Under the pieces are notes generated by a model. The model was given only the letters and a program-made list of their open reading frames with translations. It did no database searches and was not told the DNA's origin. A program made the position numbers and the translations under genes. Positions 14,585-34,324 of a stretch of DNA of 46,557 bases are shown in pieces (the first letter of the stretch is position 1; each line of letters starts with the position of its first letter). Origin of the DNA: Verrucomicrobiia bacterium. Lineage in GTDB: Bacteria > Verrucomicrobiota > Verrucomicrobiia > Limisphaerales > UBA11358. The stretch lies in NCBI GenBank assembly GCA_035279985.1, contig DATEGR010000067.1:1-46557 (forward strand), read 5' to 3'.

Positions 14585-15481
14585 ATGCCGATACCCAATT
14601 TGAAACCATCAAAGTCAAATAACAACTCACCGTTGCCATCGGGCTTCACGCTGATTGAATTGCTGGTGGTGATTGCCATCATCGCGATTTTGGCGGCGTT
14701 ATTGCTGCCGGCCCTGTCCGCCGCGAAGATCAGGGCGCAGCGGATTGTATGCGTATCAAATCTGAGGCAATGGGGGGTGGCCTTTCCGATGTATGCCGGC
14801 GACCACCATGACAGTCTGCCGTTGGGTTGGTATGATCCGAATGGGATGTGGATGTTTGCGTTGCAGCCATACATGCCTGGATCCGTTAGCGGGACCGGCA
14901 TGGGCGGAAAGCTATGCTACTGTCCAGCGGCAACAAAGATGCGCAGTTCACTTGCGAATTTTTGGGTTACTTCCGGCACCACCTTTCTGGCCTGGGGCAT
15001 CATGGGCACGAACGGCTATCCGGTTGCGACTCCGTGGGGCCGTGCCGGCATGGCCGGCAGTTATGGATTTAACGGCTGGCTGGCCAATCCCCCGGATGCG
15101 GAATTGGCTGCTGCTGGTGCCGCTGCGGTAGCGGATTCGCCAGGATATTGGCGGACAATGACAGGAGCCGGCAGGTACGCGTCGCGGACACCCTTATTTG
15201 CTGATTGTGTGTGGCAGGGAAGCAACCCGCACGCTGGCGGCAGCTACAATACCACACTCGATGCAGCGCCTGCGAACGAAGGTGATTGTGGGGCTTTCGA
15301 TGAGTTGCCGTCTTTTTGCATTCCCAGACACGCCAGCAGAAAGCCTGTGGACATGACGTTCGTGGATGGTTCGGTCAGGTTCGTGGGCTTGAAGGAGCTT
15401 TGGCAAATGCCTTGGAGCAAGATTTACGATCCGACCCAAGCCCTGAGCAGGTTTCGCGCCTGGATGAACAGTTACGATTAG
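14585..15481 (+). CDS. Prepilin-type N-terminal cleavage/methylation domain protein, DUF1559-like with H-X(n)-DG tail
   Basis: G|[28 protein letters not shown] prepilin motif. DUF1559-like [22 protein letters not shown]-terminal [19 protein letters not shown] (H-X11-DG variant). ATG 14585 preferred over the track's GTG at 14525. Confidence 0.8.
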
Positions 15482-15572
15482 TCAAAACCATGGCTCCCGG
15501 ATTTCCCAATGCCTGTGACTTTGCTGCTATCAGCCTGCACAAAAAAGATAAGCCAAACAAACCCATAAAACC

Positions 15573-18299
15573 ATGAAAAAAATTCTATCCATCGCCGTCA
15601 TCGGCAGCGTTCTTTTGAGCGCGGTTCCGTTTGCATCTGCGGTGACTATTTACACCGAAAACTGGGGCACGGGTAACAGTGGTGTTACCGGGAACGGCAA
15701 TATCAATACGGTTGGGTGGACAGCGATTGCCGCGTCACAGAGTGCCGGGCCCTACGTCGGCATCTATACGGCCACCGGCGCGAGCGATCCCACGCTCGGT
15801 CTGGCCTTGCCCGCAAACACGGTTTATTTTACGGGCTTTCAGACCACCAACCTGCCGGGGATGCTTTATACCACAAGCGCTGCGGGATCGGGTGCTGGGG
15901 GTAATTCCAGTTTCGCCAATATTGATCCGACGCTGTACACGAACCTGACCTTTAACCTGGAGGTTCGGGATCCCAATGGAGGCAATCCAGCCACCAACTA
16001 TTTTGCAGTTCAAGTGGGAGGACAATGGTATGTGGCGACCTCTTACCAGTTGCCCGAATACACTGCCGGGTATCCGCAATTTACGAATGCTTCCCTGGTT
16101 TATACCAATCCGGCCAATGTCTGGCAAACCCTGACCATAAACGGTACCACCAATGTAACAATCGGTTCTGTGGCATCTCCCAACTTGACCTCACTCATCA
16201 CCGGCATCGGTATTGTTGAAATCAATACTCCGGGTGGTTTTAATTATAACGAGCTGCTCATCAACCAGGGACCGGGCGATTTCCCGCAGATCGCGCCCAC
16301 CAATACCGCCGTGGCGGTGACCCCGCAATACGTCTACGTTGGCGGCGGGGCCGCGTTTGTATCCACCTTTGCCGGTCCACTGTTGGTTTACCAATGGCAG
16401 ACCAATGGCGTGAATATTAATGGAGGAAGATACCTCGGCACAGCCGGCAACACGATGACTATCACCAACTGTAACCTCGGCGATGCGGGTTCCTTCTACA
16501 TGGTGGTCGTGACGAACAAATTTGGCAGTGCTACCAATAGCGGTCTGCAGTTGATCGTCAGCAATGTGCCTCCTGGTCTTTTGTATGCGGAGAATTTTCC
16601 TTATCTTGGACCTAACGGCAACACCCCTATCACCGGTGTGGGCTGGGTCGTCGCGGCACCGGCCAGCACAGGCATCGGCATTTACCAGGCTGGCGGTGGT
16701 CTTGGCGACGTCTTTTCATATTCTCCCATTGCCACCACCAACGCTTATTACACAACGGATACCAATGACGCAGGAATCTCCGGACTGCCGTTTGTCGATA
16801 TCAATCCCGCCAGTTATCCTTTCGTAACTTTCCAGGCCGGTTTCGTCCCCGGGAATGGCCCCGGGCAGGTTTCCGGAGCCATCTCGGTTTATTGGGCGGT
16901 TAAGATGACGAACGGCTGGTTCTGCTCTGCCCAGCCTCAAGCGATCGATCTCTCGGCGCTAAGCCCTTATCAAAACTATCAATATGGATTCAACCCCGCG
17001 GCGAGCAATTGGAATAACCTCACCATTACCAGCGGCAGTGCCGTAATCGGTGCTCCGGCTGCAAGCCCGTTGACCGGCAATATCATTGGTGCCGGCCTGG
17101 TGGTTGCTCACAATACCGGAACTGGTTCAGACATGAATTTCCAGAGTTTCGAAATCATCACCAACCAGGCGGTGGGCAGGCCGCCGAACATCAACCAGAA
17201 CTATCCGCTTGACGTAACTGTCGCCTCAGGCGGTGGCGCCAGTTTTGGCGTTTCCGCCAGTGGAACATCACCTTTCACTTATAGTTGGACGACAAATGGC
17301 GTCCCTGTTTCCAATGGGGGCAGAATTTCCGGCGCAACCACGCCGACTTTGACAATCGCCGATTTAAATACCAACGATAATAGTCTGCAGATAGTTGCGT
17401 ATGTCACCAACGCTGCTGGCGGTGATAACAGCACTTTATCAGCTGCCGGTGGGCCTACTACACTGACGGTAACCAGCCCTCCCGTTGGCTTCATTTATTC
17501 AGAAGTGTTTCCGTTTGTCGGCCCGGTTGCAGGCAACTACTCGATTAGCGGTGTCGGGTGGACCGAAGCGGTTCCCAGCACTCCCAACGCTCTATTCCAG
17601 GCCGGTACGCCCGGAACGAGCTCGGCAAGCCAGGGAGCAGTTTTTGCCTTTCTGGGAAGCGCGGGCACCACTGTGTATTACGCAACTGCTGCCTCCGATA
17701 CCAATCAATCTGGACTGCCTTTCCCGAATATCGACCTGGCAGCTTATCCAAACTTGAGCATTTCGGCGAGTATTGCGCCAAACTCGGCGTCATCCACCAA
17801 CGTCGCGGCTTACGTGGCGGTGCAACTTAATGGCAACAATTGGTACGTTTCCGCGAATGCCTTGTTGGGGCCGAATGTGGCTTCGAACTCGGTGTACTCC
17901 ACCTACACAATGAGCTTTAATCCGGCCGCGGCGAACTGGAATAATTTGACCGTAACCAGTTCGGGCGGGCTGATCGGGTCGCCGGCAGCCGGCAACTTGA
18001 GCGGTGTCATGACCGGGGCCGGTCTGGTATTCGTCACCGTAGGAAGCGGAGGCACCTTCAACTTTAATAATTTCCAGGTCTCGGACCTCGGAGTCGTGGG
18101 CGGCATCAATGTCGGCGGGGTGACGGGCGGCAACCTCAATCTGTCCTGGGTTGGAAACCCGGCAGTGAGGTTGCAGAGTTCCACCAATTTGAGCAGCAGC
18201 TTGAATTGGCAGGATGTGCCGAACACATACGGGCTGTATTCGCTGCCTGCGCCTGTCACCGGATCCCAGAAATTTTTCCGGTTGAAGAACGGTCCGTAA
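15573..18299 (+). CDS. Large secreted protein: three copies of an unassigned ~200-aa module separated by two Ig-like domains, plus the shared C-terminal FYR-type domain
   Basis: Signal peptide MKKILSIAVIGSVLLSAVPFASA. Modules at residues ~24-232, ~333-532 and ~636-838 share IY[TAS]E..F/W, VGW, SGLPF..ID...YP and FNPAA.NWNNLT[IV]TS. Ig-like segments contain YQWQTNG and YSWTTNG. Tail is LNLSW...LQSSTNLSSSLNWQDV...KFFRLKNGP. Confidence 0.8.
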   Translation: MKKILSIAVIGSVLLSAVPFASAVTIYTENWGTGNSGVTGNGNINTVGWTAIAASQSAGPYVGIYTATGASDPTLGLALPANTVYFTGFQTTNLPGMLYTTSAAGSGAGGNSSFANIDPTLYTNLTFNLEVRDPNGGNPATNYFAVQVGGQWYVATSYQLPEYTAGYPQFTNASLVYTNPANVWQTLTINGTTNVTIGSVASPNLTSLITGIGIVEINTPGGFNYNELLINQGPGDFPQIAPTNTAVAVTPQYVYVGGGAAFVSTFAGPLLVYQWQTNGVNINGGRYLGTAGNTMTITNCNLGDAGSFYMVVVTNKFGSATNSGLQLIVSNVPPGLLYAENFPYLGPNGNTPITGVGWVVAAPASTGIGIYQAGGGLGDVFSYSPIATTNAYYTTDTNDAGISGLPFVDINPASYPFVTFQAGFVPGNGPGQVSGAISVYWAVKMTNGWFCSAQPQAIDLSALSPYQNYQYGFNPAASNWNNLTITSGSAVIGAPAASPLTGNIIGAGLVVAHNTGTGSDMNFQSFEIITNQAVGRPPNINQNYPLDVTVASGGGASFGVSASGTSPFTYSWTTNGVPVSNGGRISGATTPTLTIADLNTNDNSLQIVAYVTNAAGGDNSTLSAAGGPTTLTVTSPPVGFIYSEVFPFVGPVAGNYSISGVGWTEAVPSTPNALFQAGTPGTSSASQGAVFAFLGSAGTTVYYATAASDTNQSGLPFPNIDLAAYPNLSISASIAPNSASSTNVAAYVAVQLNGNNWYVSANALLGPNVASNSVYSTYTMSFNPAAANWNNLTVTSSGGLIGSPAAGNLSGVMTGAGLVFVTVGSGGTFNFNNFQVSDLGVVGGINVGGVTGGNLNLSWVGNPAVRLQSSTNLSSSLNWQDVPNTYGLYSLPAPVTGSQKFFRLKNGP

Positions 18300-18409: not shown

Positions 18410-19738
18410 ATGAAATTTGCCTGTTTCACTTTAGCGATAGCGGCGCTTTTTGCGCCGGGCGTATCACTCGCGCAGAACAGCTTTATCGCCGGGGCGGACT
18501 TTTCCGATCTGAAATTTTTCGAAGCTCGGGGTATTGCCTACAAGGATGGCGGACAGGTTCAGGACGGGATTCAGATTCTCAAAAATCACGGTATTAATTG
18601 TATCAGGCTGCGGCTCTGGACCAGCAGCCCGGCTCAGGCCAGCGCGGACCCATACAACTACGGCAATAATACCAACTACACCGTGCCACTGGCGGTGCGG
18701 GTCAAAAACGCCGGCTTGCAGTTCATGCTGGATTTTCATTATTCCGACACCTGGGCCGATCCGGGTCATCAAACCACCCCGGCGGCCTGGGCCGGCCTGA
18801 CTTTCGTCCAACTGGTGTCGCAGATGCGCACTTACAACAGCAACACCATCGTCGCTTTCGCGGCCGCGGGGGCAATGCCGGACTACGTCCAGATTGGCAA
18901 TGAAATCACCCACGGCATGTTGTGGACCAATGGACAGCTTACGGGCCCGTGGAGCAGTTCCAACCCATCGTGGATCCGGCTCGGCCAATTGATGAATGCG
19001 GCCATCCAGGGAATCGAGGATGCGACGAATGCTACGGGCGCTAAAATGCCTAAAATCATCGTTCATATTGACAGAGGCGGCGACTGGGGCACGACCCAGG
19101 CGTATTTTGAAAACCTGAATGCTCAAGGAGTGCCTTACGATATCATCGGCGAGAGTTATTACCCCTTCTACCATGGATCACCCACAAATCTGAATATTTG
19201 TCTCAGCAATGCAGCGGTTGAATTCGGCAAACCCATCATCGTCGCTGAGGACGCTTTTCCCTACACCAATACTTGTCCGTCCGCCTGGCTTGGCCAGCTT
19301 TTTGGCTATCCGCCTACGCCGGCTGGTCAGGTCAGTTTCATCGCCGCGCTGGCCAGGATTGTGGAAAGTGTGCCCAACCACCTCGGGGCGGGCTTCGTCT
19401 ATTGGGGAGCAGAGTATCAAGCGGCCAGCGGTGTCAATGAAGCCGGTTTCAATACGGCGTCGTTTTTTGATGCCGGTGGCAATGTTCTGCCGGTGGCCAG
19501 CGCCGTTGGCGGAATGGCCGCCCCACTTTTGATCAGCCCCTCGCTGAATGGTTCGAATCTACAGTTACAGTGGCCATTCAGTGGAGCTGCTTTGACCTTG
19601 ACGACCACAACCACCTTGGCGCCTTCAACCGTCTGGTCGTCGGTGCCCAATACGCCCCAAACCACGGGAGCAGTGTTTACCGTCACCCTGCCGGTGGATT
19701 CCAGCCAAACCCGTTTTTACCGCTTGCAACCGAACTGA
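18410..19738 (+). CDS. Glycoside hydrolase family 53 endo-beta-1,4-galactanase with the shared C-terminal FYR-type domain
   Basis: Signal peptide MKFACFTLAIAALFAPGVSLAQ at ATG 18410 (the track ORF starts at 18206, inside the upstream gene). Motifs FMLDFHYSDTWADPGHQTTPAAW and QIGNEITHGMLW. Tail is LQLQWPFSG...TVWSSVPN...TRFYRLQPN. Confidence 0.85.
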   Translation: MKFACFTLAIAALFAPGVSLAQNSFIAGADFSDLKFFEARGIAYKDGGQVQDGIQILKNHGINCIRLRLWTSSPAQASADPYNYGNNTNYTVPLAVRVKNAGLQFMLDFHYSDTWADPGHQTTPAAWAGLTFVQLVSQMRTYNSNTIVAFAAAGAMPDYVQIGNEITHGMLWTNGQLTGPWSSSNPSWIRLGQLMNAAIQGIEDATNATGAKMPKIIVHIDRGGDWGTTQAYFENLNAQGVPYDIIGESYYPFYHGSPTNLNICLSNAAVEFGKPIIVAEDAFPYTNTCPSAWLGQLFGYPPTPAGQVSFIAALARIVESVPNHLGAGFVYWGAEYQAASGVNEAGFNTASFFDAGGNVLPVASAVGGMAAPLLISPSLNGSNLQLQWPFSGAALTLTTTTTLAPSTVWSSVPNTPQTTGAVFTVTLPVDSSQTRFYRLQPN

Positions 19739-20309: not shown

Positions 20310-21212
20310 ATGCGAATGATCAAGGGTCGGATTTTTCCCGATATTTCAGTCAACTTACTGCTGTGGGCGCTGATGGCGGTGGTGCCCTGTCGGGCCGATG
20401 GCCTTGAAGGCAACGGTCAGAGGGTTCCGCCCGCTGCGTCACCGGCGGAAAAGTATTTCAGCGACTGGTTTGCGCGCGTGTCCAGAACCCAGGCGGAGCA
20501 GCCGCATTGGATCACCCCGCTGGTGACTGTCACGCCCCGCCTGGAACAGGAACTTCGTTATGACCAGTCATGGGAAACCGTGCCGGGAGGTGCTACTTTG
20601 AAAAGTTTCGGCGGCGGCAAAGGACTGGAGCTGATCCCGGCGGAACCCATCGAGCTGATTTTTGGGGTGCCGGCGTGGGAATCCGAAGACACCTCGCCGC
20701 ACAAGCAAGGCTGGGCCGATGAGAGCTTCCTGCTTAAATACCGCTTCTTGTCCGCCAATGAGGAAGCAGGCAACTACATCCTCACGGCGTTCCTGGGTCT
20801 TTCAGTGCCCACCGGGAGTGCCGACTTCACAACCCATCACTATGCCGTCACTCCCACCATCGCCTTTGGCAAAGGCTGGGGCGATTTCGATTTCCAGACA
20901 ACTTTCGGCGTGTCCGTGCCTGATGAGGGCAGCGCGCCGGCTGGCGCAGGAACGCCGCTATTGCTGAACACGGCGTTTCAATATCGGGTGATGAAAAATC
21001 TTTGGCCGGAAGTGGAAGTCAATTACACTCACTGGCCCAATGGCAAACACGATGGACTGGACCAGGCTTTCATTACCCCGGGGCTGGTGGTTGGGAAAAT
21101 TCCCATCGCAGGTCGCGTGGGACTGACTGTGGGGGCGGGCTATCAGGCCGCCGTGACCGACCATCCGCTTTATCGCCACAATTTTATCCTGACCGTGCGG
21201 GTTCCATTTTAG
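20310..21212 (+). CDS. Putative outer-membrane beta-barrel channel (MetA-pathway/transporter-like fold), first gene of the mod operon
   Basis: Signal peptide. Alternating hydrophobic beta-strand pattern. C-terminal aromatic residue (FILTVRVPF). About 300 aa. Only 9 nt separate it from modA. Confidence 0.5.
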   Translation: MRMIKGRIFPDISVNLLLWALMAVVPCRADGLEGNGQRVPPAASPAEKYFSDWFARVSRTQAEQPHWITPLVTVTPRLEQELRYDQSWETVPGGATLKSFGGGKGLELIPAEPIELIFGVPAWESEDTSPHKQGWADESFLLKYRFLSANEEAGNYILTAFLGLSVPTGSADFTTHHYAVTPTIAFGKGWGDFDFQTTFGVSVPDEGSAPAGAGTPLLLNTAFQYRVMKNLWPEVEVNYTHWPNGKHDGLDQAFITPGLVVGKIPIAGRVGLTVGAGYQAAVTDHPLYRHNFILTVRVPF

Positions 21213-21221
21213 CGGGAATTT

Positions 21222-22019
21222 ATGACAAACCACCGATCCTCCTCGCGGCAGCGAACGGGAAGGATATACCTGTTCTCCCTGGTTATCTGGGCGGGTACCT
21301 TCTTGCTGCCACTGCATTCCGCCTCCTCCAAAGAAGTCATGGTCTTTGCTGCTGCCAGTTTGACCGATAGCCTGAAACAAATTGCCGCCGCCTACAAAAA
21401 AACATCCGGCGATGCCATCACGTTCAACTTCGGCGCCTCCAGCACGCTGGCGCGGCAAATCAAAGCCGGCGCGCCCGCCGACATTTTCTTTTCCGCTGAC
21501 GAAGCGCAAATGAACGCGCTGGCGAAGCGAGGATTGATCAACCCCGCCACGCGCAAGGACCGCCTGGGCAATTCATTGGTCGTCGTCACCCCCCAAGCCA
21601 GTTCGCTGCAAATCACATCAGCGAACGATCTTACCAATGCCGGCATCAAACGCCTCGCGCTCGCCGATCCCGGGGCCGTGCCGGCGGGCGTTTACGCCAA
21701 AGCCTGGCTGGGAAAACGACACCTCTGGTCGGTCATCGAGCCGAAAGTTATTCCGACGGAAAATGTCCGTGCCGCGCTCGCTGCCGTCGCGTCCGGTAAC
21801 GTGGACGCCGGGGTCGTCTATAAAACCGATGCCGTCATCTCCAAACGCGTCAAAATCGCTTATGAAGTTCCGCGCGCTGATGGTCCGGACATCCGTTACC
21901 CGATGGCCTTGGTGAAGGGCTCGCCACAACCCGAGGCCGCCAAAAAGTTGCTGAACTACCTTACCTCCGAAGAAGCTGGACAGGTCTTCACGCGGTATGG
22001 CTTCCTGTTACGGCAATGA
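21222..22019 (+). CDS. modA: Molybdate ABC transporter substrate-binding protein
   Basis: VFAAASLTDSLKQIAAAYKKTSGDAITFNFGASSTLARQIKAGAPADIFFSADE is a typical ModA sequence. Followed by modB and modC. Confidence 0.9.
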   Translation: MTNHRSSSRQRTGRIYLFSLVIWAGTFLLPLHSASSKEVMVFAAASLTDSLKQIAAAYKKTSGDAITFNFGASSTLARQIKAGAPADIFFSADEAQMNALAKRGLINPATRKDRLGNSLVVVTPQASSLQITSANDLTNAGIKRLALADPGAVPAGVYAKAWLGKRHLWSVIEPKVIPTENVRAALAAVASGNVDAGVVYKTDAVISKRVKIAYEVPRADGPDIRYPMALVKGSPQPEAAKKLLNYLTSEEAGQVFTRYGFLLRQ

Positions 22020-22690
22020 CGGCCGTGGAATGGCAGATTGTCGGATTCACGGTGTGGGTAGCTGCGCTGAGCACGGTTGTGATCCTGCCGTTTGGTTTGG
22101 CGCTTGCCTGGGCGCTGGCGCGAGGCAATTGGCCGGGCAAATCTCTCGTGGAAACCATCGTCACGCTGCCGCTCGTCATGCCGCCCGTGGCGGTCGGTTT
22201 GATCCTGCTTCAAGTTTTCGGCCGGCGCGGTCCGGTCGGCGGTTTTCTGCATGACCGCCTCGGCCTCGATATCATCTTCACCTGGCGGGCGGTGTTGCTG
22301 GCGCTGAGTGTGATGTCGGTGCCGCTGCTGATCCGCTCCGCGCGTGTAGCGTTTGAAGAGGTCAACCCGCGTTTGGAGCAGATCGCTCGCACCCTCGGCG
22401 CCGGTGGCTGGCGCGTTTTTTTCACCATTACCCTCCCGCTGGCCGCGCGCGGCATCGTCGGTGGCATGCTCCTCGCGTTCGCCCGCGCGCTGGGCGAATT
22501 CGGCGCCACCATCATGGTTGCCGGTTATCTGCCGGGCAAAACCGCGACGATCTCCCTTGCCATTTTTGAAAACGTGCAACTCGGCCAGGACGCTCACGCT
22601 TTCCGCCTGCTGGGTGTCTCGGTCGTACTGGCCTTCGCCGCCGTCTGGTGCAGCGAATTTTTCCTGCGCCGGAAAAAAGCAAGAGCATGA
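22016..22690 (+). CDS. modB: Molybdate ABC transporter permease
   Basis: Multi-TM protein with ModB-like TLPLVMPPVAVGLILL and the EAA-loop region ARTLGAGGWRVFFTITLPLA. ATGA overlap with modA. Confidence 0.9.
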   Translation: MTAVEWQIVGFTVWVAALSTVVILPFGLALAWALARGNWPGKSLVETIVTLPLVMPPVAVGLILLQVFGRRGPVGGFLHDRLGLDIIFTWRAVLLALSVMSVPLLIRSARVAFEEVNPRLEQIARTLGAGGWRVFFTITLPLAARGIVGGMLLAFARALGEFGATIMVAGYLPGKTATISLAIFENVQLGQDAHAFRLLGVSVVLAFAAVWCSEFFLRRKKARA

Positions 22691-23751: not shown

Positions 23752-23772
23752 AACTGCTGCTAAAAACTTCCC

Positions 23773-24012
23773 ATGCGCGTGCTTTTTTTCACCCAACTCA
23801 AGGACGCCACCGGTTGCGATTCGGTTGAACTCGCGCCAGCCTCGCCGCTGAACGGCGAACAGCTTTGGGCGGAATTGCTGAAGCAGTTTCCAAAGCTTGC
23901 GGCATATCGATCCTGTGTCCGGCTCGCAAAAAATTACGAGTACGCCGCGCCCGAAACAACATTTGTCAACGCCGACGAGGTGGCATTGATTCCGCCCGTG
24001 TCGGGTGGCTGA
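23773..24012 (+). CDS. moaD: Molybdopterin synthase sulfur-carrier subunit
   Basis: 79 aa with ubiquitin-like size and a C-terminal Gly-Gly (IPPVSGG). Lies next to the MoaE domain gene. Confidence 0.8.
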   Translation: MRVLFFTQLKDATGCDSVELAPASPLNGEQLWAELLKQFPKLAAYRSCVRLAKNYEYAAPETTFVNADEVALIPPVSGG

Positions 24013-24021
24013 ATTTCTCGC

Positions 24022-25755: not shown

Positions 25756-25757
25756 TT

Positions 25758-25781
25758 GTAGCAGCGGACGTGAGTCCGCTC
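25758..25781. repeat. REP-like element: GTAG followed by a hairpin (AGCGGAC-GTGA-GTCCGCT)
   Basis: GTAGCAGCGGACGTGAGTCCGCTC lies 3 nt after the moaE-moeA stop. 7-bp stem with a GTGA tetraloop and no U-tract. Confidence 0.4.
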
Positions 25782-25833
25782 TAACCTTTCGACGAAGATT
25801 CGAGAATGAGCCGTTCACATCGGCTGCTGCGAA

Positions 25834-26286
25834 GTGAAAACACATACTTTTTCGCATCTGGACGAAGCCGGCGGTGCGCGCATGGTCAATGTCGGCCACA
25901 AACCGGTGCAGCGCCGCCGCGCCATCGCTGAAGGCAGATTGATTTGCCAGCCCACAACCATTCGCGCCCTTAAAAAGAACGCGCTGCCTAAAGGTGATGT
26001 TCTGACTGTGGCGCAAATCGCCGGCATTCAGGCGGCCAAGCGGACCGGGGAGCTGATTCCACTATGCCATCCGCTGGCGCTCAACCACGTAGAAATAAAA
26101 TTTCGTGTCCGGGCTGCGGCCATCGAAATTGTTTGCACGGCGGAAACGCATTCGCAGACCGGTGTCGAACTGGAAGCGCTGACCGGCGTCAGTGTCGCGG
26201 CGTTAACGCTTTACGATATGTGCAAGGCGGTGGACAAAACAATGCGCATCGGGGACATTCATCTTGTGAAGAAAATCAAGGAATGA
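25834..26286 (+). CDS. moaC: Cyclic pyranopterin monophosphate synthase
   Basis: THLDEAGGARMVNVGHK ... LIPLCHPL ... TGVELEALTGVSVAALTLYDMCKAVDK are classic MoaC motifs. GTG start as given in the track. Confidence 0.9.
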   Translation: MKTHTFSHLDEAGGARMVNVGHKPVQRRRAIAEGRLICQPTTIRALKKNALPKGDVLTVAQIAGIQAAKRTGELIPLCHPLALNHVEIKFRVRAAAIEIVCTAETHSQTGVELEALTGVSVAALTLYDMCKAVDKTMRIGDIHLVKKIKE

Positions 26287-26771
26287 AAATCGGGCGCATC
26301 ACCGTCAGCGACCGCGCCTCGGCCGGGATTTACGAGGACCGCAGCGGGCCGGAGATCGAGAAGGTCTTGAGGGAGTTTTTGGGCAGCGAGGCAACATTTG
26401 AACCGGTGGTGGTGCCGGATGAAGTGGAAAAAATTTCAGGAACATTGAAAAAATTCGCGGATGAATTAAACTGTGATTTGGTTGTGACAACGGGAGGCAC
26501 AGGAATTGCCGCCCGCGACGTAACGCCGGAGGCGACCCGCCCGATTTTGGAAAAGGAATTGCCGGGTTTCAGCGAGGCAATGCGGATGCAGTCGCTGGCC
26601 AGGGTGAAAACGGCGATATTATCGCGTGCGCTGGCTGGCACCCGCGGGAAAACGTTGATTGTTAATCTGCCGGGCAAGCCTTCGGCGGTTCGCGAGTGTC
26701 TGGAGATTCTCGCGCCGGCGATCCGCGAGGGCATGGCCCATTTGCGGGGCGAAGACCCGCACACAACATGA
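26283..26771 (+). CDS. mog: MoaB/Mog family molybdopterin adenylyltransferase
   Basis: MKIGRITVSDRASAGIYEDRSGP ... LVVTTGGTGIAARDVTPEAT ... LPGKPSAV. ATG 26283 overlaps the moaC stop (ATGA); the track start 26064 lies inside moaC. Confidence 0.85.
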   Translation: MKIGRITVSDRASAGIYEDRSGPEIEKVLREFLGSEATFEPVVVPDEVEKISGTLKKFADELNCDLVVTTGGTGIAARDVTPEATRPILEKELPGFSEAMRMQSLARVKTAILSRALAGTRGKTLIVNLPGKPSAVRECLEILAPAIREGMAHLRGEDPHTT

Positions 26772-26775
26772 GAAA

Positions 26776-27753
26776 ATGAACGATACGTTTGGCCGCACTG
26801 TTGATTATTTGCGCATCTCGATTACCGATCGATGCAACGAACGGTGTCTCTACTGCATGCCGGAAGGCTACAAAGGCTGGGAAAGCAGGCAGGACCATCT
26901 GACCGCGGACGAAATCATCCGGGCGGTGCGCGTGGCGGCAGAACTGGGCTTCCGAAAATTCCGGCTGACGGGCGGCGAACCGCTGGTGCGCGGCGATATT
27001 TTGGAAATCATCCGGGGCATGAAACAAATTTCCGGCGTGGAAGTGATTGGGCTTTCGACGAACGGGATCAAGCTCGCCGGGCTGGCGCAGCCGCTGCGCG
27101 ACGCGGGAGCCAACACGGTCAACATCAGTCTCGATGCACTGGATCCGCGGGTTTACCGGCAGGTGACCGGCGGCGACGTGAATGCCGTCATTGCCGGCAT
27201 CCGCGCCGCCGTAGCGGCGGGTTTCGACCGCGTGAAACTGAACTGCGTGCTCATGCGCGGCGTCAATGAGCAGGAACTCTGGCCGCTCGTTCTGTTTGCG
27301 GCTGAACACCGCCTGCCGTTGCGGTTGATCGAGCTGATGCCCTTGACGCGAACGGACGTCCTGACGGAGAAGAACTTTCTGCCGGTCGGCGAAGCGATGC
27401 AGTTGCTGGGCCAGCGCGACGAATTGATTCCCCGGCCGGACGTGAAGATTGGCCATGGCCCGGCAAAGTATTTTCTGTTGAAACAAACCGGCGCACTGGT
27501 GGGTTTCGTCGGGGCGCTGACGAATCTTCAATTTTGCGAGAACTGCAACAAAATGAGGCTCACGTCGGACGGGAAAATCCGTCCCTGTCTCGGGGATCAC
27601 GGCGAAATTGATTTGCGCGAGGCCCTGCGCAATCACAGTGACGATACGGTATTGCGGCAATTATTCCTGGAAGCCTTGCGTTTGAAACCCCAGGAACATC
27701 AATTCCGCGACCTCTACCAGCCGCTGCGTCCGATGACGGCCATCGGCGGATGA
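26776..27753 (+). CDS. moaA: GTP 3',8-cyclase (radical SAM)
   Basis: YLRISITDRCNERCLYCMPE (CxxxCxxC radical-SAM cluster), LTGGEPL, and C-terminal cluster CENCNKMRLTSDGKIRPCL. Start at ATG 26776 rather than the track's 26659. Confidence 0.9.
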   Translation: MNDTFGRTVDYLRISITDRCNERCLYCMPEGYKGWESRQDHLTADEIIRAVRVAAELGFRKFRLTGGEPLVRGDILEIIRGMKQISGVEVIGLSTNGIKLAGLAQPLRDAGANTVNISLDALDPRVYRQVTGGDVNAVIAGIRAAVAAGFDRVKLNCVLMRGVNEQELWPLVLFAAEHRLPLRLIELMPLTRTDVLTEKNFLPVGEAMQLLGQRDELIPRPDVKIGHGPAKYFLLKQTGALVGFVGALTNLQFCENCNKMRLTSDGKIRPCLGDHGEIDLREALRNHSDDTVLRQLFLEALRLKPQEHQFRDLYQPLRPMTAIGG

Positions 27754-27915: not shown

Positions 27916-28067
27916 TTACACATTATTAGTTGGTCGGCGGACTTTGTTTACTTTAACTTCCGACATTCAAGAAAAAACCCATCCTCCCCAAATTATTTTA
28001 GAGGTTGCATTTTCTGATTTGGAGCTTTCCTGCAAGAAAGCTATCTTCGTTGACGAGTATTCAATAT

Positions 28068-28709
28068 ATGACTCAACCAATGACTTTATTGGCGGACGAC
28101 TCGATTCCGACCCGATACAGTTTGCTGAGCCGGTTGCAGAATTGGGATGACCAGGAAAGTTGGAAGGATTTTTTTGACACCTATTGGCGGCTGATCTATT
28201 CGAGCGCGCTCAAATCAGGTTTGACGGAATCCGAGGCTCAGGACGTGGTTCAGGAAACGGTCATTTCCGTGGCCAAGGACATCCACAAGTTCAAACGTGA
28301 CCGGGCGCTGGGTTCCTTCAAGGGTTGGTTGCGGAACGTAACCCGCTGGCGAATTGCGGATCAATTGCGAAAGCGAACACGGCACGGGCGGGTAGAAAAC
28401 CCGGAAAGCCAAGGGGAGAGCCGGGCCGTGGACGTCGCTCAAATTCCTGAACCGGCTGGCGATGAGTTGGAGTCCGTTTGGGAAGCTGACTGGCAGGCAA
28501 ATTTGTTGGAGGCAGCGATTGCAAAGGTCAAGCGTTCCGTCAAGGAAGAGCATTTTCAAATGTTTGATTTGTATGTGATTCAGCAATGGCCGGCCGGGAA
28601 AGTGGCCCGGACGCTGGGCGTGAATGTCGGGCAGGTTTATCTGGCCAAACACCGCGTTTCCGCGTTAATCAAGCACGAAGCACGCCGGTTGGAGAAAAAA
28701 TGGGAGTGA
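28068..28709 (+). CDS. ECF-type sigma-70 family RNA polymerase sigma factor
   Basis: Region 2 DVVQETVISVAKDIHKFKRDRALGSFKGWLRNVTRWRIADQLRKR. Region 4 HTH AGKVARTLGVNVGQVYLAKHRVSALIK. N-terminal TRYSLLSRLQNWDDQESWKDFFDTYWRLIY typical of PVC-type ECFs. ATG 28068 chosen over the track's 28005. Confidence 0.8.
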   Translation: MTQPMTLLADDSIPTRYSLLSRLQNWDDQESWKDFFDTYWRLIYSSALKSGLTESEAQDVVQETVISVAKDIHKFKRDRALGSFKGWLRNVTRWRIADQLRKRTRHGRVENPESQGESRAVDVAQIPEPAGDELESVWEADWQANLLEAAIAKVKRSVKEEHFQMFDLYVIQQWPAGKVARTLGVNVGQVYLAKHRVSALIKHEARRLEKKWE

Positions 28710-29794
28710 AACGGAGTCGAACACGGGATAGAACGTTCTTTGTTACCAGAATGAGGCAGCGTGGTGGTATGGTTTGCCGATTATTTAAAGCGGGACCTTT
28801 TATGCAGGAGCCATTGGAACCGGCCCGAGATGCCGAGGCAGTTTCTCCCAAAACCTCGCAGTTGCCTGCCGTTCCCGATCACCAGATGGTTCGCTTGATT
28901 GGCAGCGGCAGCGGTGGCGACGTGTGGCTGGCAAAAAATGCGCTCGGCACCTACCGCGCCGTCAAAATCGTGCAAGAGCGGTCGTTCAAACAGCGCCGGC
29001 CTTTCGAACGGGAGTTCAATGGTGTGTTGAAATTCGAGCCGGTGTCGCGCTTGCACGACGGATTGGTAAATGTCCTCCAGGTGGGACACAATGAAGCGGC
29101 GGGATATTTTTACTGCGTGATGGAACTGGCGGATGACATTGCCACCGGCCAGCTGATTATTCCTGAATGCTATTATCCCCGCACTCTCGAATACGATTTT
29201 CGCCAGCGCGGCCGCTTGCCCATCGGCGAATGTGTCCGGCTGGGTGCGGCTATTGCGTCAGCCCTCGGTTTCCTGCATCGGCACGGCTTGATCCATCGCG
29301 ACATCAAACCCTCCAACATCATTTTTGTGAACGGCTTTCCCAAACTGGCAGATATGGGATTGGTCACGGAATCGTCCGAAACCACCATGCGCGTGGGCAC
29401 CGAAGGCTTTATGCCGCCGGAAGGGGCCGGCACCGCCCAGGCGGACATTTACTCCCTGGGAAAAGTCCTGTACGAAATCAGCACCGGTTTGGATCGGAAC
29501 GATTACCCGTCGCTGCCGACGCCGTTAGCGGACACCCCCGAGGACCGGGATATGCTCTCGCTTAATCGAATCGTCCTGAACGCCTGCCGCGGCGATACGA
29601 GCCGCCGTTATCAAACTGCGGAAGAGCTGTTGGCCGCCTTGCTGTCCTTACAGTTCTCCCACTACAACCCGGGCCGTGAGCGGTTTAATCTGCGCCTGAT
29701 CAAAATCATCGGAATTATCGGCGCCATTGTTGGATTCACGGTTGTCATCGCCGCGGTTTGGCGCCTCCTCTGGCTTTTGGAACATGGCCCATGA
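28700..29794 (+). CDS. Ser/Thr protein kinase, tail-anchored by a single C-terminal TM helix
   Basis: Gly loop IGSGSGGDVW, catalytic Lys in YRAVKIV, catalytic loop HRDIKPSNI, DMG in place of DFG, GTEGFMPPE. C-terminal TM IKIIGIIGAIVGFTVVIAAVWRLLWLL with about 5 residues beyond it. ATG 28700 follows GGAGA and overlaps the sigma stop; a later start at 28802 is possible. Confidence 0.8.
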   Translation: MGVKRSRTRDRTFFVTRMRQRGGMVCRLFKAGPFMQEPLEPARDAEAVSPKTSQLPAVPDHQMVRLIGSGSGGDVWLAKNALGTYRAVKIVQERSFKQRRPFEREFNGVLKFEPVSRLHDGLVNVLQVGHNEAAGYFYCVMELADDIATGQLIIPECYYPRTLEYDFRQRGRLPIGECVRLGAAIASALGFLHRHGLIHRDIKPSNIIFVNGFPKLADMGLVTESSETTMRVGTEGFMPPEGAGTAQADIYSLGKVLYEISTGLDRNDYPSLPTPLADTPEDRDMLSLNRIVLNACRGDTSRRYQTAEELLAALLSLQFSHYNPGRERFNLRLIKIIGIIGAIVGFTVVIAAVWRLLWLLEHGP

Positions 29795-30019
29795 CAGGCA
29801 GCGTTCTTTTTGGAGAAAAAGTTTTGAAAGAACCGTTGTTGTTCGCACGAGTTAATAGTAGATAACCAGGTTGAGTGGCATTGAAAGTTGGGCACTGAAT
29901 GCGTCGTATGAACCAGGACAGTTGAGTCTATGACAAAACAACACGCGCTATGGGGTTCGGTTCGGGCAAGACATTGCGGCCCAAGGGATTCCGGTTGCGC
30001 CCCAAATCATCCAGCCTTT

Positions 30020-31000
30020 ATGAAGACTTTTACTGACTTTCTCGCTCATCCGGAAAACACCCGGCGAACATCATTGGCTGGCGGTTGTCCTGACCGCGGT
30101 TTTACGCTCGTTGAACTGCTGGTAGTGCTGGGAACGGTCGCCGTGCTGGCATTGGTGCTGGTGCCGGCGCTGGCGAGCACCAAAACAGACACTTGGCTAA
30201 TCCAATGCCAAAACAACCTGAAACAGCTCCAGGTGGGCTTCCAACTTTTTGCGCGAGACCACAATGATATGTTCCCGCCTGCCGGAGACCAGACGTTGAG
30301 CGGCAGACAATTGGCGTGGGACGCCTATATTCACCACTATTTTGGCGATACCAATTCAGACGCTTCGTGGACCGCTGGAATTCTGCTTGCCGGCTCCTCA
30401 CCAACGATGGCAAGGCTCGAATTATGCCCGGCGGATCGATTTCCAAAAGTGATCTGGCTGACCAGCCCGCCTGCATTCGCGCTAAGGTCTTATGCTGTGA
30501 ACAGTGTGGGGCCCAATTATGGAACTCAATTCCAGATCAGTACCTCGGGCGGGACCTATCCCTTGCCCGATTTAAACCAGCCGGGTTATCATGGTGTCGG
30601 AATTTATTGGCAGAGCTCGGGTGTGTTGCCGGACTGGGATGCGAAAGGTTACAAATCGTCCGTGGTAAAGGACCCCGGCGGCACCATCCTGTTGTGCGAA
30701 GAAACCGGCGGCCAGCAGTGTGTAGGCAACATTTGGACCTGCATTTGCAACGGCCCGCAAACCTCGCAACATGGCGGCGTCAATGGCAACCTTTACCAGA
30801 TTGACACGACCTCCATCCCTCAAAATCCCAATAGCAGCGCCGGTGTAAATCAGGGGAATCTATTATACAACTCGCATGGAGGCCGATTCAACTACGCTTT
30901 CCACGATGGTCACGTGGCCGCGCTCAAAATCGAGCAAACGGTCGGCAGCGGAACCATCAGCGCACCTGAAGGCATGTGGACCGTGACGCCGGGGGACTGA
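30020..31000 (+). CDS. Prepilin-type N-terminal cleavage/methylation domain protein, DUF1559-like with exact H-X9-DG motif
   Basis: G|FTLVELLVVLGTVAVLALVLVPALASTK. CQNNLKQLQVGFQLFARDHND. C-terminal HGGRFNYAFHDGHV (H-X9-DG). ATG 30020 preferred over the track's 29930. Confidence 0.8.
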   Translation: MKTFTDFLAHPENTRRTSLAGGCPDRGFTLVELLVVLGTVAVLALVLVPALASTKTDTWLIQCQNNLKQLQVGFQLFARDHNDMFPPAGDQTLSGRQLAWDAYIHHYFGDTNSDASWTAGILLAGSSPTMARLELCPADRFPKVIWLTSPPAFALRSYAVNSVGPNYGTQFQISTSGGTYPLPDLNQPGYHGVGIYWQSSGVLPDWDAKGYKSSVVKDPGGTILLCEETGGQQCVGNIWTCICNGPQTSQHGGVNGNLYQIDTTSIPQNPNSSAGVNQGNLLYNSHGGRFNYAFHDGHVAALKIEQTVGSGTISAPEGMWTVTPGD

Positions 31001-31003: not shown

Positions 31004-34000
31004 ATGGCGATTCATGAACTATCCCGGCAGCGATTAAGCAAAGCAAAACTATTAATGACACAAGCCATGAAAACGAGAACTGACATCGGCAGCGAATTCA
31101 CGTTCCGAAACGTGCGCATCGGGCTGGCAGTCGCGAAGTTTTTCGGCAGGAATCTCATTGTGGCGGTCTGGTTGTCCGTGTTCGGTATTTTCGTTGCCTC
31201 GGTCAGTGCGCTGCCCGTGGCGTTGATCTCGGCGCGAAACCCCTCCGTGCCGCTGTCCACAGGGGGCGACGGCAATTCCATCGTTTCCAGCGTGAGTCCC
31301 AATGGCCGTTTTGTGGTTTTTACCAGCGCAGCCAATGACTTGACGCCCGGCGGCAACAATCTTTACAGCCTGAACGTTTTTCTCCGTGATCGGACCGGCC
31401 AAACCACCACGCTGATCAGCGGCAACTCGAATGGCACTGGCGGCGGAAACGGCGATTCGATGTCCGGCCAGGTTTCCGCCAATGGCCGCTATGTTGTGTT
31501 TCAAAGCGATGCCAGCGACCTCGTGCCCGGAGATACCAACGGGGCCAGCGACATCTTCGTGCATGATACCTATACGGACACAACCCGGCTCATCAGCGTG
31601 GCGATGGACGGCGGTTTTGCCAATGGGGCTTCCACCGACCCGGTTATGACGCCGGACGGCACCTGCGTGGCCTTCATCAGCAGTGCGTCGGACCTGGTTC
31701 CGAACGACACCAATGGCATACCCGATGTGTTCGTGCGGGATTTGCTTACCCAAACGACCTGGCTGGTGAGCGTCGGGGCGCTCCTTCCCTCCGGCAGCCT
31801 CAACCCGATCATGGCGACATCGGTCATCACGCCGGATGGCCGGTACGTGGCATTTTTCAGTCTCGCCACAAATCTGGTGCCTGGAGTTCCCGGCACCTCC
31901 GCCGGCGAGGTGTATGTGCGCGACCGGGCAACCGGGAAGACGACCTGGGCCAGCACCAATGCTGCGGCGATTGTGTCTGCCGCACTCGGCCTGAGCAATG
32001 CGCCGGCTTATCATCCGCGGCTGAGCGACGACGGTCGCGACGTTGCCTTCAAAGCCGGCTCAACCAGTCAGACTGGCGCGGTGGTCATCCTGGAATATGA
32101 TTCGACAACCGCCACGACAACGGTGATCAACACGAATGGTATTGGTTGGTACCCCGATCTCAATGACGACTATGGCCCGGTAATGACGCCAGACGGCCGT
32201 TTCATTGCCTTTGCCACACACGAGGGTACCGTCGATTCGGGTTATTCCAGTGTTCATGTTTGGGATACCCAAAGCGCAATAGACACACTTGTCAGCGGCA
32301 GTGGCAGCGGCGGCCTGACCAATACGGTTTCCTATATGCCGGTCATCAGCACGAACGGCCAGTTCGTGGTGTTCTTGAGCAATGCCACCAATCTGACCGC
32401 CAACGCGGTGTCCAATGGCTTTCATATTTACCGGCGTAATCTGCAATCCGGCACCAAGCAATTGGCAGACGTGGACACCAATGGCGTCGGTTCGACCGAT
32501 GACGAACTGACATCCTTAAGCCTGAGCGCGGATGGCCAATTCGTTGCCTTCAGCAGCCCGGACGGGAGCCTTGTCAACCTGGATATAAACCATGCAGACG
32601 ACGTTTTCGGTCGCGACTTCGTTGCCGGGGCCACGGAAATAATTTCAGAACGCGACCCGGCGGTGATTCCTCAGTCGGGCGACGGCTTCAGCGTATTGGG
32701 TCAATGGTCAGTCAGTGCCAACGGGCAGTGGGCGGCGTTTGCCAGCGCGGCAGATGATCTGGTGCCAAATGAGACGAACCAGGAGCCCGACGTTTTCGTG
32801 CGTGACCGGGTGAACGGTACCAATCTGCTGGTCAGCGCCGGGCTGAACGGCAGTTCGGCCCTGGGTGGCGGTTCTGGAAACGCGGTCATCAGCCCGGATG
32901 GCCGTTATGTGGCGTTCCTCAGCGGGGCCAGCAACCTGGTCGCCGGTCCAATCAACACCTGCGCCAACGTGTTCCGCCGCGATCTGCAAACGGGCGCCAC
33001 TGTGCTGGTCAGTGTTGGAACTGATGGCATCAGCCCCGGGAACAGCGACGCTTCCGATTTGGCCATGAGTTCAGATGGGCAGTATATTGCTTTTGTCAGC
33101 CGGGCCATTAATCTGGTTTCGGGAATCACCAGCGGGGTGAACACGTATTGGCGGGACGTGAACTTGGGACAGACCGTGGGACTGAAAGGTGCCAATTATT
33201 ATGCTTTTGGTCCTTCCCTGAGCAGCGACGGTCGTTATGTCGCCTACGCGTTTGGTGTTTCTGCTTCAACCGTCAGATTACAAATCCGGGATACCCAAGT
33301 GGGAACCGACATCTATACCAATTCGGGAACAGTAACGTCGGCAGCGATTGACCCGACCGGGAGCAAAATCTTTTATCGCATTGCCAACACTCTCTACGTG
33401 GACAACATCAATCCCAGAACAAATCTTTTCTCGATTTCGACTACATCCACCTCTCCGATTCGGAATGGCGGCGGCTGGAGCGATGATGGCCGCTGGCTGA
33501 CATTTGTATCCACCGCCAACTTGACAGGTGGAGACGACGGCACCAACAAGGTTTACCTGCTCGATTTCCAGACCGGCACGCTCACCCTGGTCGGTCTGGC
33601 CGGTCCGGGGACCGGCAGCATGGATGCGCTTTCGGACGGGCCGGTCATGAGCGGCAACGGCCGGTTCGTCGCCTATCGCAGCGTCGTGGTCAACACGGTC
33701 ATCGGGGACAACACGGCACCCCCGAACCTGTTTCTGCTCGACCGCCTGACGGGGTCCAGCACGGTGCTGGCCATCGGGCCGAACAGTTCGGGCCCGATAG
33801 TATGGACGTCCCGACCGGTGATCTGCGACAATGGGGCGACGGTGGCTTTCCTGGATATGGGTTCGAGTCTGGTGGTCGGCGACCTCAATCGGGAACCCGA
33901 TGTCTTCGGCGCTTCCGTGGATATCAATGCCGCCCTCGTGGACAGTGATGCCGATGGAATTCCAGACTGGTGGATGATGAAATATTTCGGTCATCTGACC

Positions 34001-34324
34001 GGACAGACCAATGACCTGTCGCTCGCGCAGGATGACGCCGACGGCGATGGCGTTTCCAACTTGCAGGAATATCTGGCCGGCACCAGCCCGATTGACCCCA
34101 CCTCGGTGTTCAAGCTTGCACCAACAGTGCCGGTCAACAACACCGTGGGCCTGACCTGGCCCGCGGTGATGGGCCGGAGCTACCAAATCCAGTTCAAGAC
34201 CAATTTGACCGATTCCGTGTGGTTCACCCTGCCAAGTGGTGCCTGGGTAATGGGCGGGCAAGGTCACTATCTTGCCCCGGCACCTGTACCCAACGGCTTT
34301 TACCGTGCCATGGAGTCGAATTAA
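31004..34324 (+). CDS. Giant secreted/anchored protein with ~16 PD40/TolB-like beta-propeller repeats, a TSP3-like acidic Ca-binding segment and the shared C-terminal FYR-type domain
   Basis: N-terminal TM/signal anchor. Repeats of the form [VS][MIS][ST].[DN]G[RQ][FY][VI][AV]F.S.A..L and ...DVFVRD. DSDADGIPDWW ... DDADGDGVSNLQEYLAGTSPIDP. Tail VGLTWPAVMGRSYQIQFKTNLTDSVWFTL...NGFYRAMESN. Starts 4 nt after the DUF1559 gene stop. Confidence 0.8.
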   Translation: MAIHELSRQRLSKAKLLMTQAMKTRTDIGSEFTFRNVRIGLAVAKFFGRNLIVAVWLSVFGIFVASVSALPVALISARNPSVPLSTGGDGNSIVSSVSPNGRFVVFTSAANDLTPGGNNLYSLNVFLRDRTGQTTTLISGNSNGTGGGNGDSMSGQVSANGRYVVFQSDASDLVPGDTNGASDIFVHDTYTDTTRLISVAMDGGFANGASTDPVMTPDGTCVAFISSASDLVPNDTNGIPDVFVRDLLTQTTWLVSVGALLPSGSLNPIMATSVITPDGRYVAFFSLATNLVPGVPGTSAGEVYVRDRATGKTTWASTNAAAIVSAALGLSNAPAYHPRLSDDGRDVAFKAGSTSQTGAVVILEYDSTTATTTVINTNGIGWYPDLNDDYGPVMTPDGRFIAFATHEGTVDSGYSSVHVWDTQSAIDTLVSGSGSGGLTNTVSYMPVISTNGQFVVFLSNATNLTANAVSNGFHIYRRNLQSGTKQLADVDTNGVGSTDDELTSLSLSADGQFVAFSSPDGSLVNLDINHADDVFGRDFVAGATEIISERDPAVIPQSGDGFSVLGQWSVSANGQWAAFASAADDLVPNETNQEPDVFVRDRVNGTNLLVSAGLNGSSALGGGSGNAVISPDGRYVAFLSGASNLVAGPINTCANVFRRDLQTGATVLVSVGTDGISPGNSDASDLAMSSDGQYIAFVSRAINLVSGITSGVNTYWRDVNLGQTVGLKGANYYAFGPSLSSDGRYVAYAFGVSASTVRLQIRDTQVGTDIYTNSGTVTSAAIDPTGSKIFYRIANTLYVDNINPRTNLFSISTTSTSPIRNGGGWSDDGRWLTFVSTANLTGGDDGTNKVYLLDFQTGTLTLVGLAGPGTGSMDALSDGPVMSGNGRFVAYRSVVVNTVIGDNTAPPNLFLLDRLTGSSTVLAIGPNSSGPIVWTSRPVICDNGATVAFLDMGSSLVVGDLNREPDVFGASVDINAALVDSDADGIPDWWMMKYFGHLTGQTNDLSLAQDDADGDGVSNLQEYLAGTSPIDPTSVFKLAPTVPVNNTVGLTWPAVMGRSYQIQFKTNLTDSVWFTLPSGAWVMGGQGHYLAPAPVPNGFYRAMESN

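Follow-up and report, generated by a model that had tools for sequence, protein, structure and literature searches.

A 46,557-nucleotide stretch of a Verrucomicrobiia bacterium (Limisphaerales, UBA11358; assembly GCA_035279985.1, contig DATEGR010000067.1, positions 1 to 46,557 of the forward strand), referred to below as the window, contains two loci in which regulatory genes are followed by a gene for a prepilin-type protein and then by a gene for a giant exported protein. These loci are two independent examples of one operon type that is also found in Verrucomicrobiota relatives. A preliminary description of the window, based on the sequence, had already proposed this order; the listing of open reading frames (ORFs) together with Pfam and NCBIfam scans places the genes of both loci where that description had put them or close by, and comparison with relatives identifies regulator, prepilin-like gene and giant protein as a conserved unit in both loci, whose co-regulation is suggested by shared cis-elements. 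The term "twice-repeated cassette", used in the same description, has to be abandoned: the two prepilin-type proteins are 25% identical and the giant proteins are unrelated apart from a shared C-terminal domain (CTD), so that the loci are analogous and not duplicates of each other.

Gene content of the two loci

The unit of locus 1 lies on the plus strand. It begins with a sensor histidine kinase carrying PA14 in its large N-terminal region (9339 to 12557; Pfam PA14, HisKA_3 and HATPase_c) and a LuxR/NarL-type response regulator (12554 to 13201; Response_reg and GerE), continues with a PEP-CTERM protein that ends in VPEP, a hydrophobic stretch and RRR (13330 to 14094), and leads to prepilin-type protein 1, or pilin 1 (14585 to 15481), and to a 908-amino-acid (aa) exported protein (15573 to 18299). 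Behind these genes stands a galactanase of glycoside hydrolase family 53 (GH53) that carries the CTD (18410 to 19738, CTD at 19523 to 19735; Pfam GH53, 286.6 bits). The locus is larger than first described, extending upstream of the kinase to a GH2 beta-galactosidase-like gene on the minus strand (259 to 2835; Pfam Glyco_hydro_2 domains) and, on the plus strand, to a GH53 endo-beta-1,4-galactanase without the CTD (3019 to 4377; PF07745, 306 bits), a 760-aa protein with no Pfam match (4441 to 6723) and a second GH2 gene identified by the Pfam scan (6736 to 9342). With two GH53 genes, two GH2 genes, a sensor and a regulator that are conserved together, locus 1 has the composition of a GH53/galactan locus, its specificity being predicted from enzyme family. 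At 27% identity over 549 aa, the 760-aa protein resembles the N-terminal part of a protein of 1384 aa from a planctomycete locus (L055), which has a weak GH5-like match and CBM9 and is encoded directly after a pilin-like gene.

Locus 2, likewise on the plus strand, opens with a sigma factor of the extracytoplasmic function (ECF) type (28068 to 28709; TIGR02937, 66.8 bits against a cut-off of 42.9) and a Ser/Thr kinase (28700 to 29794, start uncertain; Pkinase, 88.4 bits). No domain other than the kinase domain was detected in the latter, apart from one hydrophobic stretch at the C-terminal end, which may anchor it in the membrane. Its longest ORF (28586 to 29794) overlaps the sigma gene by 124 nt and its orthologs measure 326 to 331 aa (L004, L005), which places the true start later. 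Prepilin-type protein 2, or pilin 2, follows at 30020 to 31000, where a longer ORF starting at 29930 is also possible, and its partner is a PD40/Tricorn-like beta-propeller protein (31067 to 34324; PD40, 71.7 bits) with the CTD at 34109 to 34321. The latter gene had been thought to start at 31004, 4 nt after the pilin gene, and to encode 1106 aa. A public NCBI protein of 1085 aa and orthologs that are all about that length make 31067 the most likely start, so the gap to the pilin gene would be 66 nt.

Both pilins have a class III signal peptide with the cleavage and methylation motif G/F-x-x-x-E, where the slash marks the cleavage site, as recognised by PF07963 (30.2 bits for pilin 1 and 25.7 bits for pilin 2, cut-off 21.2) and TIGR02532 (32.7 and 20.3 bits, cut-off 16.3). 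Across 66 pilin-1 orthologs, F21, T22, L23, I24 and E25 are invariant, including Phe+1 and Glu+5; these two residues and a long N-terminal helix are hallmarks of subunits that assemble into filaments. The AlphaFold2 (AF2) model of pilin 1 (predicted local distance difference test, pLDDT, 81.6 overall) has a helix at residues 23 to 73, with pLDDT of 86 to 97 over most of it, and follows the layout of the type IV pilin superfamily, a long N-terminal alpha-1 helix and a globular head. In a profile search of PDB, residues 20 to 75 match type IV pilins and GspG (5wda) with E down to 4e-11, and Foldseek returns a weak match of the model to PilA4 (E = 0.19). The best NCBIfam equivalog matches of the two pilins are GspG and GspH over the N-terminus; the GspG equivalog TIGR01710 itself, with a cut-off of 88.85 bits, is not reached, as the scores are 31.0 and 23.1 bits and the alignments are confined to the N-terminal 55 residues.

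Proteins of the DUF1559/H-X9-DG type are among the largest paralog families of bacteria of the Planctomycetota–Verrucomicrobiota–Chlamydiota (PVC) group. Both pilins had been assigned to this type, which applies to pilin 2, with 25.6 bits to PF07596 (SBP_bac_10, threshold 23.3 bits) over residues 62 to 302 and a literal H-X9-DG motif, HGGRFNYAFHDG, and fits pilin 1 less well, which stays below the threshold at 17.0 bits and reads H-X11-DG instead. Several orthologs of pilin 1 do carry a precomputed PF07596 match. Neither protein reaches the cut-off of TIGR04294 (H-X9-DG-CTERM, 19 bits), at 12.0 and 12.3 bits. A solute-binding-protein identity, taken from the Pfam name SBP_bac_10, was considered and found unsupported, the head having no PDB match by fold or profile.

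The giant partners carry N-terminal signal peptides and are therefore probably Sec-exported. The 908-aa protein has the architecture signal peptide-[M-Ig]x2-M-CTD, in which three M modules of about 200 aa are 30 to 42% identical to each other; its AF2 model is all-beta (pLDDT 79.4), and its Pfam matches at E <= 0.01 are limited to I-set/Ig_3. The PD40 protein matches PD40, DPPIV_N and TruB_C at the same threshold and has an aspartate-rich stretch ahead of its CTD. A profile of the M module finds no match in PDB sequences or Pfam. A kinship of this module with the PEP-CTERM or the 760-aa protein was dismissed, as hhalign found no relationship and the weak BLAST similarity is compositional; Foldseek of the whole 908-aa model against PDB returned only eukaryotic multi-Ig proteins, matches that are driven by the Ig domains and uninformative on the M module. 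Two GH53 galactanases of relatives (L001:11840-14149 and L089:12761-15121) carry an N-terminal M module with CTD that is about 39% identical to residues 640 to 908 of the 908-aa protein. This fusion of the M module to GH53 suggests that the module acts on or binds galactan, and it is the best argument for such a role.

The CTD, a beta-sandwich domain of about 65 to 80 aa, ends five proteins of the window at 24 to 31% mutual identity, with invariant T, L, W, F and R (approximately STNL..W...FYR), so the shared domain that the preliminary description had noticed is real. Its carriers are the 908-aa protein (CTD at 18102 to 18296), the second GH53 galactanase, the PD40 protein, a GH5 protein on the minus strand (34357 to 35697, CTD at 34360 to 34599; Cellulase, 161.7 bits), which is a neighbour of locus 2 only, and an 811-aa Rax2/DUF5122 beta-propeller, also on the minus strand (37481 to 39916, CTD at 37484 to 37699), which has no pilin-like neighbour and shows that the domain is general. 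No Pfam or NCBIfam model matches any of the five copies, even at E <= 10. Its value as a mark of the cassette is lost, since a search of 1.84 billion representative proteins with a profile built from the five copies yields 8,723 matching clusters at E <= 0.001; the CTD is a common module of signal-peptide proteins in this lineage, for which anchoring, sorting or binding are candidate roles. In the loci fetched from relatives (titled Verrucomicrobiota, one titled "bacterium" only), 22 of 23 CTD proteins have a single copy at the very C-terminus, the exception being the GH53 protein of L001, in which it is internal; a CTD-like domain is internal in the GH53 protein of L089 as well. The top profile matches hold 2 to 12 tandem copies, and in 64 of 150 the best copy is the one at the very end of the protein, which weakens a strict reading of the CTD as a C-terminal sorting signal.

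Conservation and shared cis-elements of the units

Relatives were compared through Verrucomicrobiota loci, some of them titled Limisphaerales, that hold homologs of the 908-aa protein (L001 to L003), of pilin 1 (L087 to L089) or of the PD40 protein (L004 to L006). The locus 1 pair is constant: an ortholog of the 908-aa gene lies directly downstream of the pilin ortholog, on the same strand, in seven of seven loci. Homologs of the 908-aa protein in L001 to L003 are 59 to 72% identical to it, each with a prepilin-type gene directly upstream, and every pilin-1 homolog in L087 to L089 is directly followed by a 908-aa homolog, frameshifted in two of these assemblies (L087 and L088). On a broader scale, at least 30 of 69 pilin-1 homologs on contigs of 5 kb or more reside on a contig sized identically to that of a top-120 homolog of the 908-aa protein, a lower bound in which co-location was judged by exactly equal contig size. 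All six relatives (L001 to L003, L087 to L089) carry GH53 with GH2 or GH35, the PA14 kinase and the regulator. Orthologs of the histidine kinase (58 to 63% identical) adjoin the pair in L001 to L003, where the response regulator is 71 to 80% identical and the GH53 gene with the CTD also has orthologs; in L002 and L003 the orientation of kinase and regulator is reversed. The PEP-CTERM protein has orthologs in L001 (68%) and L002 (54%). Next to the galactan locus of two relatives lies a further arrangement, in which the gene for an AraC-type regulator that has a periplasmic-binding-protein-like domain is followed by a prepilin-like gene and this by the gene for a large Ig/PATR protein (L002:18872-22775, L003:1-3497).

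At locus 2, each PD40 ortholog of L004 to L006 stands behind a gene whose product has a GFTLxELLVV signal and a C-terminal DG motif, an adjacency that holds in five of five cases. Both L004 and L005 contain two copies of the pilin-PD40 pair in tandem. In the L005 tandem, the first PD40 copy (L005:3526-6779) is split over several frames, and either the gene has decayed to a pseudogene or the assembly is faulty at this point. L004 and L005 retain the sigma factor and the kinase, which are missing from L006. The hydrolase with the same domain, which had been counted as part of the unit, does not belong to it: the GH5 gene is in convergent orientation, does not have the promoter motif described below and has no homolog in L004 to L006, where genes of the polysaccharide lyase PL22 type, for a GDSL-lipase or for Lipase_3 take its place. 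Both pairs are thus kept at 50 to 72% protein identity with rearranged flanks, which is more than chance would give.

Two cis-elements, a 16-nt motif at locus 1 and an ECF-type promoter at locus 2, are new here. Aligned upstream regions of pilin-1 orthologs share an invariant block, from which the 16-mer TTTGTGAGGCTAGGCA is taken; it has three matches in the window with up to three mismatches, against 0.30 expected, a figure that is indicative only. All three copies lie upstream of genes of the locus and are oriented toward them: before the PEP-CTERM gene (13257 to 13272, plus), before pilin 1 (14392 to 14407, plus) and, as TTTGTGAGGCTATGCA with one mismatch, before the GH2 gene on the minus strand (2935 to 2950, minus). 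The motif recurs before pilin, PEP-CTERM-like and GH53 genes in L001 to L003, L087 and L088, standing upstream of the pilin gene in L001, L002, L003 and L087 and at the matching position before the PEP-CTERM gene in L001 and L087, and it is absent from 83 other loci searched. This recurrence at genes of the locus points to one predicted regulon that includes the operon of pilin 1 and the 908-aa protein, and we infer the neighbouring LuxR-type regulator to be a candidate binder of the motif.

The locus 2 element, TTTGAAAGAW-N(12-20)-CGAGYTA, is organised like an ECF promoter. One match lies in the window (TTTGAAAGAA-N15-CGAGTTA, 29823 to 29854, plus), upstream of pilin 2, against an indicative expectation of 0.00. 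In L004 it precedes both pilin genes and the sigma gene, and L005 holds one exact copy, at a pilin gene, and two with one mismatch. A diverged copy just before the sigma gene of the window (TGCAAGAAAG-N13-CGAGTAT, 28031 to 28060, plus) keeps the same register as the sigma-gene elements of L004 and L005. When the gene of an ECF sigma factor has the same promoter as the genes under its control, this typically marks autoregulation, and the predicted promoter of locus 2 conforms to this pattern. From the motif to the start of pilin 2 the window has about 165 nt (29855 to 30019), compared with about 25 nt in L004 and L005, and an insertion in the pilin-2 leader of the window appears to account for this. 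A terminator scan found no terminator-like site in either gap between pilin and giant gene; the remaining terminator results and the sigma-70 scan were uninformative.

A candidate mechanism and its rivals

Considered together, the pairs may be viewed as type IV filament proteins attached to catabolic loci. We propose, tentatively and at a likelihood somewhat short of even, that the pilin-like protein serves as an inducible adaptor that exports its partner or displays it on a type IV filament or on the pseudopilus of a type II secretion system (T2SS). A dedicated regulator would drive a promoter behind which the prepilin-type gene and then the gene for a large all-beta CTD protein are placed. 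Prepilin peptidase would cleave the class III signal peptide, the pilin-like protein would join a type IV filament, either the T2SS pseudopilus or a fibre resembling a type IV pilus (T4P), and, as an inducible adaptor, it would help its partner across the outer membrane or hold it on the fibre. At locus 1 the three M modules of the partner might bind galactan, so that a cell sensing galactan would equip a shared filament machine with a capture protein specific for that substrate. The glycan connection suggested earlier for this locus gains from the GH53/GH2/GH35 setting, the shared 16-nt motif and the GH53 fusion of the M module; a glycan role for the PD40 partner, suggested at the same time, finds no support.

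Several observations weigh against this proposal. The pilin head (about 220 to 250 aa) has no relative among PDB structures, by fold or profile, so the fold gives no functional hint. The window ORFs that were scanned include neither a prepilin peptidase nor T2SS or T4P machinery. That the pilin-like protein joins a pseudopilus and touches its partner are conjectural elements of the model. PD40 paralogs that are 55 to 66% identical to the PD40 protein of the window pair with pilins only 22 to 23% identical to pilin 2, and the type of pilin is therefore not strictly tied to the type of partner. In L007 a 52% identical pilin-2 ortholog precedes a GH2 gene and not a PD40 gene, and in a planctomycete locus (L010) a pilin-like gene is directly followed by a GH53 gene, an adjacency that carries the link between pilin-like gene and galactan enzyme across phyla. 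Both cis-element patterns were defined after inspecting the alignments, which is why their chance estimates are to be read as indicative. A survey of species-representative genomes (80 loci across Verrucomicrobiota, Planctomycetota, Lentisphaeria and others, with rough ORF calling), of the kind that the preliminary description had put forward as a test, found that 11 of 79 prepilin-like genes and 58 of 655 others (8.9%; Fisher p = 0.11) are followed on the same strand by a gene of 600 aa or more, and that on the upstream side a gene of this size is present in 5 of 81. The rule of a large gene downstream fails across PVC bacteria, and it is particular pairs that are conserved in this lineage; there is a looser tendency of pilin-like genes to head operons of exported proteins.

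The L010 locus (L010:6942-8998) derives from a metagenome-assembled genome of Tepidisphaeraceae (Planctomycetota) and has a second GH53 gene nearby. The survey also recorded a small same-strand ORF (120 to 210 aa) downstream of 18 of 79 prepilin-like genes and upstream of 9 of 81 (p = 0.04), for instance in L060, L062, L066 and L082; in several Planctomycetota loci these ORFs are lipoprotein-like, and a few of them are similar to each other.

The mixed company that prepilin-like genes keep across the survey, namely GH53, GH2, sulfatase, heparinase-like, Laminin_G_3, FG-GAP, LTD/CotH, porin and ATP-binding cassette (ABC) transporter components, bears on how the giant proteins themselves should be regarded. 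Since many of these partners are enzymes, as are the GH53 and GH2 proteins encoded after the pilin-like genes of L010 and L007 and the CBM9/GH5-like protein of L055, the pilin-like protein could instead be a T2SS specificity factor acting at the level of the operon, with the giant as one cargo among several (GH53, GH2, giant). In Verruconatronum alginivorum, where a PulG-like pseudopilin has 67 paralogs, one of them is encoded in an alginate-induced operon of alginate lyases, and the authors propose export of the lyases by the T2SS (PMC13274419); in a planctomycete, the T2SS is up-regulated on fucoidan (PMC11685898). Against a specificity factor of this kind stands what is seen in the relatives, where the immediate neighbour of the pilin gene remains constant (7/7 and 5/5) while adjoining enzymes vary among GH53, GH35, PL22 and lipases, and where pilin and giant gene are duplicated as a unit. 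We consider this explanation possible though rather unlikely.

It is also conceivable, if improbable, that the pilin-like protein never polymerises and acts as a periplasmic folding or holding factor anchored in the inner membrane, or as a ligand-binding co-receptor that feeds the regulator. Each unit adjoins its own regulator, and the locus 2 kinase, which in the ORF as called shows a kinase domain and one C-terminal hydrophobic stretch only, would need a sensing partner. The Pfam family name SBP_bac_10 and the ABC transporter components among a few downstream partners elsewhere are in keeping with such a role, as are the size of the head, at about 250 aa far larger than that of assembling pseudopilins, and the lack of a GspG match past the N-terminus (31 against 88.85 bits). 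On the other hand, Glu+5 and Phe+1, hallmarks of filament subunits, are invariant, and the model lacks a solute-binding-protein fold (no Foldseek match). Mere adjacency by chance, with two of numerous pilin-like paralogs happening to lie upstream of large genes, might be inferred from the PVC-wide count (11 of 79 against a background of 8.9%, p = 0.11) and from the size of the families: DUF1559 proteins, which have no known function, number 68 in P. limnophila, two of them essential (PMC10632474), and the pseudopilin paralogs of V. alginivorum number 67 (PMC13274419). Conservation of the pairs at 50 to 72% identity amid rearranged flanks, their tandem duplication and the conserved cis-elements, shared with other predicted targets of the locus regulator, make this explanation highly improbable, and ortholog-level conservation has already largely refuted it.

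The reading of the pilin-like protein as an inducible adaptor, if true, would amount to a new way of organising polysaccharide capture, linked to the polysaccharide-binding fibres of planctomycetes, whose pili-like fibres bind dextran (PMC5394234). It is tempting to extend it, although we regard the extension as doubtful, to the hundreds of H-X9-DG/DUF1559 paralogs of Planctomycetota, Verrucomicrobiota and Lentisphaerota as a whole, which would then be interchangeable, separately regulated adaptors, each of them plugging another exported enzyme or binding protein into one shared type IV filament machine. Such adaptors would represent a filament-based counterpart of the SusC/D loci of Bacteroidota, and would explain both the expansion of the family and the presence of polysaccharide-binding fibres on planctomycete cells. 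In any case, a conserved unit of regulator, pilin-like gene and giant protein with recognisable cis-elements in a beta-1,4-galactan context offers a genetically tractable entry to a huge family without assigned function.

Relation to known systems and neighbouring genes

The closest formal analogues are the minor pilin/PilY1 operons and the Verru_Chthon cassette. In minor pilin operons with PilY1 or PilC (fimU-pilVWXY1), as here, pilin-like genes lie directly upstream of a gene for an exported beta-propeller or otherwise beta-rich protein of about 1000 aa, a large protein thought to ride the filament, and the PD40 partner is likewise rich in propeller. These operons have four or five pilin-like genes, whereas the units described here have one, with a head of about 250 aa of the H-X9-DG type, a regulator of their own, many units per genome and no pilus assembly genes nearby; homology to PilY1/PilC was not detected, as neither giant protein has such a match in Pfam at E <= 0.01. 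The Verru_Chthon cassette (TIGR02596 to TIGR02600) is a recurrent cassette of Verrucomicrobia in which genes for prepilin-type proteins stand together with that for a very large protein. It comprises four genes, unlike the two-gene unit here, and of its models only TIGR02596 (protein D) touches the window, at the N-terminus of pilin 1 with 22.4 bits against a cut-off of 70, both giants being unmatched.

The T2SS pseudopilins GspG to GspK share with both pilins the class III signal peptide, the N-methylation motif and the long hydrophobic N-terminal helix; they differ in that the head is twice as large here and has no structural match, and in that the genes are scattered in catabolic loci and not gathered in a gsp operon. 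The pseudopilins of V. alginivorum come from the same phylum and belong to an expanded family with one copy in a substrate-induced operon for polysaccharide degradation. The likeness is one of description, and neither a fixed pilin-giant pair, nor dedicated regulators with shared cis-elements, nor the CTD is reported there (PMC13274419). Searches of the literature on DUF1559 or H-X9-DG found no functional study, those pairing prepilin with glycoside-hydrolase clusters in Verrucomicrobia or pseudopilin with Kiritimatiellota found nothing relevant, and no publication was found that describes a constant pairing of pilin and giant gene together with regulators and cis-elements dedicated to it.

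To our knowledge, PVC phyla degrade complex glycans without Sus-type loci. In common with the SusC/D loci of Bacteroidota, locus 1 has a co-located and probably co-regulated set of sensor or regulator, candidate surface glycan-binding protein and glycoside hydrolases for one glycan, with the 908-aa M-module protein as the candidate binding protein; the pilin-like gene has no Sus counterpart, and no TonB-dependent receptor (SusC) or SusD domain was found in the 20 larger window proteins scanned. The CTD recalls the C-terminal sorting domain of the type IX secretion system (T9SS), a beta-sandwich of about 70 aa at the extreme C-terminus of unrelated exported proteins. Por_Secre_tail models of Pfam and NCBIfam do not match the five window copies, however, and, unlike sorting signals, the CTD can be repeated in tandem, with as many as 12 copies in other proteins. 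As far as we know, the T9SS is not a feature of Verrucomicrobiota.

The region between the two loci (20310 to 27753) holds genes resembling those for a molybdate ABC transporter and for molybdenum-cofactor synthesis, assigned by eye, together with an outer-membrane-channel-like gene of a MetA-pathway family. Its genes appear unrelated to the units on either side, and GC content climbs to 0.60–0.62 over this region.

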